From an uncultured Candidatus Sumerlaeota bacterium (GTDB taxonomy: Bacteria > Sumerlaeota > Sumerlaeia > SLMS01), in assembly GCA_964437365.1 (NCBI GenBank), contig CAYTGM010000021.1:2522-66521 (forward strand): a DNA stretch of 64,000 nucleotides, given 5' to 3'. Below the pieces are notes generated by a model. That model was given only the letters and a program-made list of their open reading frames with translations. It was not told where the DNA came from and searched no databases. This document shows, one piece after another, positions 15,713-37,167 of this stretch. Both the position numbers and the translations under genes were made by a program. Numbering within the stretch: the first letter of the stretch is position 1; every line of letters starts with the position of its first letter.

Positions 15713-15986
15713 AAGATAGACCTCTCAGAAAAAATCGAGAGGACTCAGCCAAGTACCTCGCGAATAATCTACTATGCAAAAAGTCTAATACGATCCCACA
15801 AATGGTTCATCCAGCGCCGGTGATGTCTGGAAAATCAATCAATAACGCTCACAAACATTAGAATGCGCTCAAAACAAAAGGGTTTCACCTTGACAAGTCT
15901 TTCGGCGCGTGAAGATTCTCACGTTCTCACATAGTTATGGTATGACTCAGTTAACATCACGTTGCTTAAAGTTCGGAGACAAGGCT

Positions 15987-16436
15987 ATGCGTTCTACCCA
16001 AACGTATCAGCACATCATCATCCCCACAAAAATGCAGGAACAGGCCCTTCTCAGGGCATCTCGCCCGCTTCTTCTCAATTACCTATGGCACGTCCTTCAC
16101 AATCTTGACTGTCAGCTGATACAATTCAACGGTGCTGAAGACCATGTTCATCTCCTCGTCAAAGTCGCACCGACTCTCTCACTAAATGAAGTCATGACTA
16201 AGTTGATCAACTCGAGCAGTTATTGGATGACAGAAAACGAGAATTTTCCAGGCTTCTCAGGTTGGTCAGAAGAATGGATCTCCTTCGAGGTTTCCAGCAG
16301 CGACAAGCAGGCTGCCAGTAATTACATAAACAATCAGGATCGTATCCACAAGAGAGAGTCTTACTTTGAAGAGCTGAGTCGACTTATCCTGCAGAGTGAC
16401 TCTCCCCAGAGCGATCCTGTTTCAAGCGTAGGATAA
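15987..16436 (+). CDS. IS200/IS605-type Y1 (HUH) transposase-like protein, diverged, no TnpB
   Basis: DHVHLL (HUH) and YINNQ (catalytic Tyr helix); GGAG RBS before ATG 15987 (ORF track starts at 15909). Confidence 0.8.
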   Translation: MRSTQTYQHIIIPTKMQEQALLRASRPLLLNYLWHVLHNLDCQLIQFNGAEDHVHLLVKVAPTLSLNEVMTKLINSSSYWMTENENFPGFSGWSEEWISFEVSSSDKQAASNYINNQDRIHKRESYFEELSRLILQSDSPQSDPVSSVG

Positions 16437-22685: not shown

Positions 22686-22781
22686 TGCTCAATTCCAGAT
22701 TGAAAGGTCTCTTCTCTAAGAGAACGAACCCCAAGAGAGGGTTAGAGGGATCTAAGAGTCAAGCACTGGCGTTCTCTCCCG

Positions 22782-22846
22782 ATGACCGACGTCTGACGGA
22801 CGTCTTATCTACGTCTTACCTACGTCTTGAGTCATCCGTCAGACGT
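22782..22846. repeat. Dispersed repeat copy 1: phased ACGTCT units inside a 12-bp inverted repeat
   Basis: 22782-22831 is identical to 36180-36229. Inverted repeat acgtctgacgga (22789-22800) / tccgtcagacgt (22835-22846). Confidence 0.9.
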
Positions 22847-23372
22847 AGGAGAGTTAAAGGGAAGACATGAGTGCCCCCATGAGGATTGTTTAAATGTCAT
22901 GTTTCAAGACCTTTCGGCCAGTGTCGGAGCTCCCTGAAGAGCTCTTGCTCAATAAAGCCATTTTCTAATTCTTTATGTGGAATAGAAGGGATAGAGGGTA
23001 CTCCCGTTGACAGCAAAAGCTGAAAGCAAGGTAACTCTCTTCCGCATACCGACGCCTCAAGAATCACGCTGGCTCCTTCCCTTGCTACGGAGGGTAAAGT
23101 TGAAGCCGCCTGACAGTGAGACGCGGGTTGATGAGGATGCTGTGAAGAGCTCTGCAGGAAATGCTGTAGAGTTGGTGGTAGGGGCTTTGGGTATTTAAAT
23201 TCTTTTCCTGGATATGTTGAGGGTGTTTGATTGGGTTTAGAGTGTGTGTTTTTGTGTTGGGTGAGTTGTGTGGTGTGTTTTCTCTGGTGCGTGCGGGGGG
23301 CGTTTTTTCGGGGTGGGGGTTTTGGGTTAAATCTTTATTTAACGAACATAAGGCGGCGGCAATAATTCCAAC

Positions 23373-36083: not shown

Positions 36084-36179
36084 CGAATTTCTGCCTGGAG
36101 CAAAACTTCTCGCCAAATTTTACCTCACTTTTACACGCGCTACGTAGCGCATGATCAGCCATTTCCCTTTCCTCACCGC

Positions 36180-36239
36180 ATGACCGACGTCTGACGGACG
36201 TCTTATCTACGTCTTACCTACGTCTTGAGACGTCCGTCA
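36180..36239. repeat. Dispersed repeat copy 2: phased ACGTCT units inside a 12-bp inverted repeat
   Basis: ACGTCT at 36187, 36198, 36209, 36220 and ACGTCC at 36230. Inverted repeat tgacggacgtct (36192-36203) / agacgtccgtca (36228-36239). Confidence 0.9.
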
Positions 36240-36391
36240 CACATGGGACAGAGGCCGGACAGAGGTTCTTCACCTGGTTTGGATGCCAGTTCTTACAGAG
36301 TGAAGACCTCGCAACCTCCGCTTCGTCGATCTCTGTCACTCAGCGAAACAGAGTTAATCATCATTCTTTCTGCGAAGAGGTAATTCAGGAA

Positions 36392-37105
36392 ATGGCTATT
36401 ATTAAACCATCATCATATATTCATTCAGTACGTGGAACAATCGGCTACGGCGAGAACGAAATGATTCTCTATTCCCGTGATGGCCGCACAGTCATGAGAA
36501 GGAAGGGACGAAATAATAATCCTCCCACAGAGCGTCAGCACTGGCACAGGACGATGACCTCCGTTGTCAGCAGGTCGTACCAGCAAATGCCACCAATACA
36601 GTACCAGAATTGGAAGAAGCTGTCAGAGATATTATTCGAAGCTCCAGTCTGTAAGAAGAGTGTTCGACCTCAATCAGTTTATCATCTCTATACAACGGTG
36701 ACGAAACATCGTCTACTGGCTGGGCAATTACACACTTATGAGCCGCCCAGGCCAGAATACCCAAGCGGTCTCGTCGCGAACCCTGTCGTAACTTATCTGT
36801 CGGACTATCAATTGAAACTTAGTTTCGATCACCCCTACAAAGGTGGTTCTGTTTACTGGAGAGTTCATCTCTCCTCTCGCCTGCCGGGAACGAATGCGCT
36901 GGCTCGCCCAAATGGAATCAGAAGTCCCCTTCCTCAACCCACATCAGCCTATTTCATCTCCTTCGATGGTTCTGAAGAAATGACTATACATACAGAGTCT
37001 GCTTATAACCCCGGAGATGGAATTGGTATTTCGATTCTTACACTCTCATCTGATTTTCTGCCTGGCAGGGAAACTTTCTTTCGTCGTCTTGATATTGGGA
37101 ACTGA
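36392..37105 (+). CDS. Hypothetical protein, DUF6266-like (basic N-terminal arm, helical core, beta-rich C-terminus)
   Basis: Pattern RGTIG...YSRDGRTVMRRK...NPPTERQ...R...YQNW...YHLY recalls DUF6266-type proteins from memory; not searched. Confidence 0.55.
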   Translation: MAIIKPSSYIHSVRGTIGYGENEMILYSRDGRTVMRRKGRNNNPPTERQHWHRTMTSVVSRSYQQMPPIQYQNWKKLSEILFEAPVCKKSVRPQSVYHLYTTVTKHRLLAGQLHTYEPPRPEYPSGLVANPVVTYLSDYQLKLSFDHPYKGGSVYWRVHLSSRLPGTNALARPNGIRSPLPQPTSAYFISFDGSEEMTIHTESAYNPGDGIGISILTLSSDFLPGRETFFRRLDIGN

Positions 37106-37120
37106 GAGCGTGTTGTAACG

Positions 37121-37167
37121 GAGTGCATCAAACTGAACGTTTAAGTTAAGATGCACTCTCTTTTATT
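37121..37167 (+). terminator. Intrinsic terminator after 36392-37105
   Basis: gagtgcatc...gatgcactc stem followed by tcttttatt. Confidence 0.6.

Follow-up and report, generated by a model that had tools for sequence, protein, structure and literature searches.

Does a DNA array built in 11-bp steps belong to the gene that it precedes, or do the two lie side by side by coincidence? The question is raised by positions 36,084 to 37,167 of a 64,000-nt stretch (called the window for simplicity) of contig CAYTGM010000021.1 from an uncultured Candidatus Sumerlaeota bacterium, where a gene for a 237-residue basic protein follows an intergenic region with several short words repeated at 11-bp spacing. 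The array is one copy of a dispersed palindromic repeat, ten of the eleven genes of this protein family in the genome (5.29 Mb in 44 contigs, 93% complete) are preceded by a repeat of this kind, and the lineages of the protein pair one-to-one with different repeat families. These observations suggest that a family of small basic proteins is partnered with families of repeats with an 11-base unit, an arrangement not described before. A first-pass annotation of the window had taken the periodic words for a cis-array belonging with the gene; this holds strongly for the gene family and not for the locus taken alone. All sequence words named beforehand were found at their positions by direct reading of the window, which contains the following features:

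36118..36134, plus strand: phased pair, two TTTTAC words (at 36118 and 36129) 11 bp apart, 273 and 262 bp before the start codon
36137..36150, no strand: perfect 14-bp palindrome GCGCTACGTAGCGC, read directly
36170..36284, plus strand: copy of the ACGTCT-family repeat (L1), with ACGTCT at 36187, 36198, 36209 and 36220 and GGACAGAGG at 36246 and 36257 (nhmmer, C21:38691-38805, E = 7.7e-32, and alignment of the copies)
36285..36391, plus strand: spacer of 107 nt between repeat and start codon, with a CTCTGT...ACAGAG hairpin and a purine-rich ribosome-binding stretch
36392..37105, plus strand: gene for the 237-residue basic protein, the single gene downstream of the array (open reading frame list, alignment, model)
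37121..37167 (approximate), plus strand: intrinsic-terminator-like hairpin (fold of -18.2 kcal/mol) with T-run, the gene's own terminator as first described; its loop is above the limit of the consensus scan, which missed it
22771..22886, plus strand: second, gene-less ('solo') copy of the ACGTCT family (nhmmer, C21:25292-25407, E = 6.8e-29)

The periodic words had been described as three unrelated ones. The ACGTCT and GGACAGAGG words are instead parts of one dispersed element, an imperfect palindrome of 11-bp units about 115 bp long, which spans 36170-36284 and contains all four ACGTCT words, both GGACAGAGG words and the 12-nt inverted repeat TGACGGACGTCT / AGACGTCCGTCA that had been noticed there. 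The recurrence of the array near 22.8 kb is confirmed (22789-22827, with about 55 nt identical between both copies); this solo copy lies in a divergent spacer between open reading frames that we take, from their translations only and with no family scan, to encode a metallophosphoesterase-like and a glycosyltransferase-like protein. With one mismatch allowed, ACGTCT-N5-ACGTCT occurs seven times in the window, where shuffles predict 0.18 matches. In the whole genome a three-unit pattern gave 94 matches at 41 loci, its reversed control pattern none, and a profile from 37 aligned copies retrieved 41 full-length copies and one degenerate copy (nhmmer). The array is thus not private to the gene as had been supposed: there are 41 further ACGTCT-family copies and, over all families described below, 228 loci, most of them without the gene.

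Copies of the ACGTCT family are 98-117 nt long (best match per locus) and never tandem. Read on one strand, the element consists of about ten 11-nt units with an ACGTC-like core and carries an 11-bp self-complementary TCACCnGGTGA-like site at each end; conservation peaks in the central 60 nt or so and falls off outward. All 42 copies are intergenic (12 between convergent genes, 10 and 9 in the two tandem arrangements, 11 between divergent genes) and unbiased in orientation, and no target-site duplication, conserved target or common flank is visible across them. Every significant nhmmer match is a solo copy of 77-117 nt; no longer element containing the repeat is among these matches, in an assembly that is 93% complete and from which a parent could be missing. 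In sequencing reads of one DNA sample, apparently the source sample, loose ends of other copies fall at 36170-36180 and 36239-36254. The element was not found in 40 related genomes searched, and an exact 25-mer of it had no match in the collection of genome contigs searched.

Over 120 nt, the window copy folds as a long imperfect hairpin of -44.1 kcal/mol. For the family as a whole, the consensus fold consists of invariant pairs only and carries no covariation information. The left inner spacer varies, with GTCCG in 18 copies and GACGG in 11, and the facing right unit is unchanged in all 14 GTCCG copies in which it is readable. Because the left spacer varies and the unit facing it stays constant, a strict hairpin requirement does not account for the conservation. 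The family shows no compensatory changes (pairs in alifold are invariant, and variation of the left spacer is unmatched on the right); since its arms show no compensation, recognition of the duplex fits better than a strict hairpin. Rfam gave five matches (E 1.2-3.5), all far under the gathering score and none on the repeat.

The 11-bp step is a property of the genome rather than of one family. Repeat clusters at lag 11 number 146 genome-wide, against 7, 3, 2 and 6 at lags 8, 10, 13 and 14. They represent further families of palindromes of about 90-115 bp made of 11-nt units, and in every unit 4-6 bp form a short self-complementary core (such as ACGT, TGCA, CCGG, CATG or GATC). A catalogue made by seed-and-BLAST followed by clustering holds 228 loci in seven main families (61, 41, 31, 30, 26, 16 and 12 loci) and a few singletons; it replaced a stricter lag-11 autocorrelation scan (31 of 44 matches required) that returned 34 arrays only, the units being divergent.

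What ties these repeats to the gene is their position at its paralogues. The eleven paralogues encode basic proteins (pI 8.6-9.7 in all eleven) of 235-238 residues with MA-like N-termini and identities of 29-55%, except for one recent pair at 84%; they are dispersed and share no neighbours. We call the window gene W and name the others by contig; the neighbours of W are Peptidase_M55 and GAF histidine kinase genes (Pfam scan). In ten paralogues the nearest repeat is always upstream, 101-264 bp from the ATG, and the second nearest 13-47 kb away; the eleventh, C1b, has no repeat within 10 kb. Among 3859 background genes, called heuristically, 162 (4.2%) have a repeat within 300 bp upstream, which gives P = 1.8e-13 for at least ten of eleven paralogues and 1.8e-9 when they are counted as seven of eight lineages. 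A count of arrays with and without the gene, as first proposed, comes out in two ways: most of the 228 loci lack the gene, and 10 of 11 paralogues have a repeat. Independently of the catalogue, a BLAST search with the 400 bp upstream found at least eight other loci for 9 of 11 paralogues versus 44 of 600 random genes; the downstream 400 bp were not enriched (3 of 11 versus 57 of 600). The 400 bp after C3 (C3:83096-83495) and C24 (C24:17038-17437) match 19 and 15 other loci, respectively. When the ACGTCT element is masked, the 330 bp upstream of the paralogues contain 18 events of exact 6-mer repetition at lag 11, distributed over 10 of 11 regions, and 0-3 at each other lag from 5 to 20. Adjacency by coincidence had been considered, an ACGTCT copy being present at one of the eleven paralogues, and was dropped because the others carry other families of 11-bp-unit repeats.

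The families are distributed over the paralogues in an ordered manner. Seven families correspond one-to-one to seven lineages: W has L1, C3 has L2, C8/C27 L3, C24 L4, C1a L5 and C17 L6, and the clade of C5, C25 and C13 pairs with L0 and an L0-like singleton. Random draws weighted with family abundance produce such a mapping with P = 0.0026. The ten repeat-bearing paralogues form one clade in the protein tree (support 100/99); C1b, the only one without a repeat, falls outside it and groups with proteins from other sources. We regard the association, its upstream position and the one-to-one mapping as established.

The upstream regions share more than the repeat. Most paralogues have the same order of repeat, 11-bp-phased word pair, TTGACA-17-TAnnnT, leader and ribosome-binding site, with TTGACA-17-TAnnnT about 75-110 nt before the ATG and, in most, a hairpin in the leader of about 70 nt. 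In at least 8 of 10 paralogues repeat and gene are separated by the TTGACA promoter, which places the repeat outside the transcript started there. No sigma-70 consensus promoter was found in 36285-36391 of the window (0 promoter-like sites). The TTTTAC pair at 36118 and 36129 is not a chance occurrence: TTTAC-N6-TTTAC is present 11 times on both strands of the genome, and six of these lie within 320 bp upstream of six of the eleven paralogues. RCGAWR-N5-RCGAWA followed by CTTGAC occurs four times, always at paralogues; the pattern was derived from them and is descriptive only. The 14-bp palindrome GCGCTACGTAGCGC is a different case. It is present and perfect as first described; such palindromes number 478 genome-wide, about 5.8 per 64 kb, with two in the window, a chance-level frequency at which the one at 36137-36150 taken alone is probably not significant. 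A GC-rich GCGC...GCATG stretch resembling this region also follows the phased pair of C1b. Each paralogue has a GC-rich hairpin directly before the ribosome-binding site, different in sequence from gene to gene, and these hairpins may be a translational control element. Outside the window, at C30:38959-38985, a run of three TTTAC words at 11-bp spacing lies 8 bp from an ACGTCT-family repeat between convergent genes, with no paralogue nearby; this may be the relic of a lost unit, or phased words and repeat may travel together.

The window protein (237 residues, pI 9.7) was modelled with AlphaFold (pLDDT 84.4, pTM 0.74). A beta-hairpin arm is predicted at residues 15-37, three helices at 47-109 and an FN3-like sandwich at 122-237. 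The modelled C-terminal domain is a seven-stranded FN3/Ig-like sandwich, a likeness at the level of fold only (Z 8.0-9.0 against solved FN3 domains, rmsd 2.6-3.5 over 90-95 residues; Foldseek E about 5e-4). Modelled alone (pLDDT 85.5), the N-terminal domain matched no solved fold (best Z 5.0, Foldseek E > 1). The HMG-box and virus-capsid folds put forward at the outset, and the ribbon-helix-helix fold, are matched by neither domain above background. Nearly invariant in the wider family are the Arg, Gln and Asn residues R36, Q49, R53, N104 and R107; no catalytic-type residues are conserved.

By sequence the family is large and without a name. With a profile of the eleven paralogues, 2002 cluster representatives match at E <= 1e-3, and 227 do so at E <= 1e-10. 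The window protein has no match in Pfam, NCBIfam or PHROG, and a Pfam scan of the eleven paralogues gave two stray single-member matches (E 0.05 and 0.088), neither credible. A word-indexed homology search returned the window protein itself only, its profile version six proteins, none of them named. No match was obtained in a PHROGs scan of 83 relatives or in tblastn searches of GenBank phages with the window protein and two relatives, and single-protein queries for related loci in viral contigs (P0048 and P0009) confirmed no relative.

A resemblance to DUF6266 (PF19781) had been proposed at the outset. The Pfam hidden Markov model (HMM; gathering score 23.4 bits) does not bear it out, with no match to the window protein at E <= 1, to any of the eleven paralogues at E <= 10, to any of 51 wider relatives at E <= 0.01 or to the whole genome in six frames at E <= 10. 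DUF6266 is of similar length and is the only Pfam family among the nearest language-model clusters of the protein atlas: a cluster that is partly DUF6266 scores 0.90 with 182 of 256 features shared, 26% of its members carry the domain, and 10 of 30 named matches in this set are DUF6266. We treat distant kinship as a language-model lead, not as membership. The literature searched contained no mention of DUF6266.

Homologues were found in 13 of 74 other genomes of the phylum searched, with one to three copies each. The arrangement recurs in a second genome: in G067, from another family of the class, a palindromic 11-bp-unit repeat ends about 118 bp before the ATG of a homologue, and this upstream stretch has 39 matches in G067, the repeat family being different from those of the source genome. 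The homologue of G021 is preceded by a six-unit 11-bp array with TTTAC-like words that has three short matches elsewhere in that genome. In G062 the upstream region has three short matches and shares a further match of 44 nt with the sequence upstream of the other homologue there; in G011 it has no matches elsewhere in G011. Arrays are visible by eye upstream of 2 of 17 relatives. At one locus of G067 (L104, G067:C117:1-1476) two homologues stand in tandem with a dispersed repeat between them, beside an open reading frame that we take, from its N-terminus only, to encode an IS110-like transposase. Upstream of another homologue (L086, G013:C30) lies a CRISPR-array-like stretch with a repeat of about 33 nt recurring with spacers.

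Dispersed palindromic repeats are common in bacteria and, to our knowledge, a partner protein is known only for the REP/REPIN class. In that class REP doublets are associated with REP-associated tyrosine transposases, or RAYTs (PMC3116915, PMC3337134, PMC5581495). The REPIN-RAYT system resembles the present one in its dispersed intergenic imperfect palindromes of about 100 bp, with tens of copies and several families per genome, and in that each family is tied to one single-copy gene with an adjacent repeat, genes and repeats being lineage-specific. The present system differs in that the partner is not a Y1/HUH transposase (PF01797), has no Pfam match and carries an FN3-like C-terminal domain, and in that the repeat lies on the upstream side only and is an array of 11-bp units instead of a simple pair of REP hairpins. 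A second likeness is to ParR-parC of plasmid R1 (PMC2241845), where units of about one helical turn lie beside the promoter of the gene for the binding protein, as they do here for the presumed one. Unlike ParR-parC, the source genome shows no ParM-like partner gene and no ribbon-helix-helix fold at the locus, and its arrays are chromosomal, dispersed and palindromic rather than all direct. We take the iterons of parC to be 11 bp long. By analogy, the unit spacing at the promoter suggests cooperative binding to one face of the DNA and autoregulation.

The reading that we favour, at roughly even confidence, is that each protein lineage recognises its own repeat family in a RAYT-REPIN-like manner with a partner that is not a transposase. 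The locus would then be one unit of a lineage-specific system pairing a gene with its own repeat family, in which the ten genes are each preceded by one imperfect palindrome of 90-115 bp, mostly upstream of the gene's own sigma-70-type promoter, and each family has 12-61 further copies dispersed in intergenic DNA. The protein would bind the 11-bp units of its own family as double-stranded DNA, with a protomer or dimer at each helical turn, all on the same face of the DNA. At the copy upstream of the gene such binding would lead to autoregulation, the dispersed copies would serve as further binding platforms of the same protein, and the protein may be required for their persistence or spread. 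We infer binding, autoregulation and any role in spread from the genomic arrangement. Any cutting and joining chemistry probably comes from another enzyme, because the family has no conserved catalytic-type residues. A fuller version we hold more tentatively and somewhat below even confidence. In it, the basic proteins would be DUF6266-like, have a new N-terminal fold and act as sequence-specific partners of the repeats, perhaps driving them, with one lineage per family; they would co-diversify with the repeats in the genome and polymerise on the duplex with one unit per turn.

Several observations weigh against this reading. In the upstream regions of the 17 relatives from other genomes there is no overall lag-11 peak (5 events, against 0-6 at other lags), so that the autocorrelation check suggested at the outset is positive for the paralogues of the source genome only. 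Just one of four upstream regions tested in their own genomes is dispersed genome-wide. In family f7 the gene is single-copy with an upstream flank shared between genomes, and in G036 the homologue stands just before a recN-like open reading frame; no array was seen at either. In the window the order of elements is atypical: the phased pair comes first and the repeat follows it, before the gene, as if inserted separately. The seven lineages of the mapping were defined after the data had been seen. No DNA-binding fold or motif was recognised in the protein, its N-terminal domain being unmatched and its C-terminal one generically FN3-like. Five of 51 wider relatives scanned, all of them long, carry a C-terminal Laminin_G_3 lectin domain (no other Pfam domain was credible in the 51; two single sub-threshold matches were ignored), and the nearest language-model clusters, unnamed and scoring 0.92-0.97, are labelled tailed phages in the protein atlas. 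Lectin domains and phage labels are more in keeping with a structural or surface protein than with one that binds DNA. Finally, the genome has 12 genes of PF01797 (Y1_Tnp), mutually divergent (identity 23-58%) and distinct from the eleven paralogues, and an 11-bp-unit repeat lies within 1 kb of 5 of these 12, the background frequency being 8.3%.

These points can be assembled into an explanation in which the repeats are selfish, REPIN- or MITE-like (resembling miniature inverted-repeat transposable elements), and are moved by another enzyme, for example a Y1 transposase, that lands them upstream of these genes because the promoter DNA there is phased and probably bent, or negatively supercoiled behind strong promoters. 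The protein would be unrelated to the repeats, perhaps a phage-derived structural or surface protein, as its FN3-like domain, the lectin fusions and the viral labels would suit. We consider this explanation unlikely, yet well short of negligible. The exclusively intergenic location of the repeats and their lack of bias in orientation or gene arrangement are as for selfish repeats, the window copy does not occupy the position seen at the other paralogues, arrays are absent from most homologues elsewhere, and the Y1 transposases are candidates for the copying chemistry. What the explanation meets with difficulty is the specificity of the pairing: the seven-to-seven mapping is improbable under random draws, C5, C13 and C25, which are related proteins, have repeats that are related too, no paralogue has a second repeat or a downstream one, and the 42 ACGTCT-family copies show neither target-site duplication nor conserved target. 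The Y1 genes, moreover, map one-to-one to no repeat family and have hairpin modules of their own. Other repeated DNA adjoins most of them, in several cases on both sides, and the 11-bp-unit repeats near them lie at the outer edge of these hairpin flanks. At C11 and C13 the flanks are multi-copy hairpin modules, those at C11 without a lag-11 signal; their positions in the source genome, outside the window, are as follows:

C11:2107-2584: Y1-flanking hairpin module
C11:3262-3683: Y1-flanking hairpin module
C13:66418-66922: Y1-flanking hairpin module

Unlike a REPIN-RAYT system, the source genome has true Y1 genes with other, non-periodic hairpin flanks. Modules of this type also occur just after the stop codon of paralogue C13, and two Y1 genes adjoin paralogues (C13 and C25). 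In the window itself a Y1/IS200-like transposase gene lies at 15909-16436 on the plus strand (PF01797, 66 bits), 6.3 kb from the nearest 11-bp-unit repeat. Small gene-less palindromic intergenic repeats of the Correia/NEMIS type offer a further comparison. The ACGTCT family is like MITE or foldback repeats with periodic arms in being small, gene-less, palindromic and intergenic, with arms of short units. It differs from them in its unit of 11, the one-to-one link to a protein and the absence of target-site duplications and of any autonomous element with the same ends among the sequences found; its conservation is central and not terminal.

One-to-one mapping is also what descent alone would produce. 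An ancestral array and gene could have been duplicated together, with the gene-adjacent copy as the sole donor of the solo copies, for instance by extrusion as a cruciform behind a strong promoter, and generic host or Y1 enzymes could have done the copying. The shared upstream layout of the ten genes (repeat, phased pair, TTGACA, -10 box and hairpin in the 5' untranslated region) suits such a history, as does the duplication unit of C8 and C27, which begins at the repeat's outer edge and reaches through the upstream region to the gene (87% identity over 253 nt upstream, no match downstream). The window copy, however, is an average member of its family and not the nearest to the consensus (111 bits, range 81-120), no sign of cruciform extrusion or donor activity was seen, and the model leaves the 11-bp spacing and the unit cores kept in all families unexplained; we judge it improbable.

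The arrays could also be transcribed into a structured RNA (11 bp per A-form turn), antitoxin-like or packaging-signal-like, that the protein binds, much as in type III toxin-antitoxin loci, whose toxin gene is preceded by repeats; the long hairpin of the window copy and its possible place within a 5' leader would agree with this, but the promoter between repeat and gene in at least 8 of 10 paralogues, the lack of Rfam matches and of compensatory changes, and the solo copies in both orientations make it very improbable.

The genomic signature of a protein-repeat partnership is thus shown by an unannotated family that has about 2000 cluster representatives among public sequences. If the proteins did not bind the repeats, the locus would still be a record of small repeats inserting at, or being donated from, an unusually specific site. 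If they do bind them, this would be the first assignment for a large uncharacterised family and would explain the spacing of one helical turn, and a single genome would provide seven natural pairs of protein and site in which the co-divergence of recognition and repeats may be followed.

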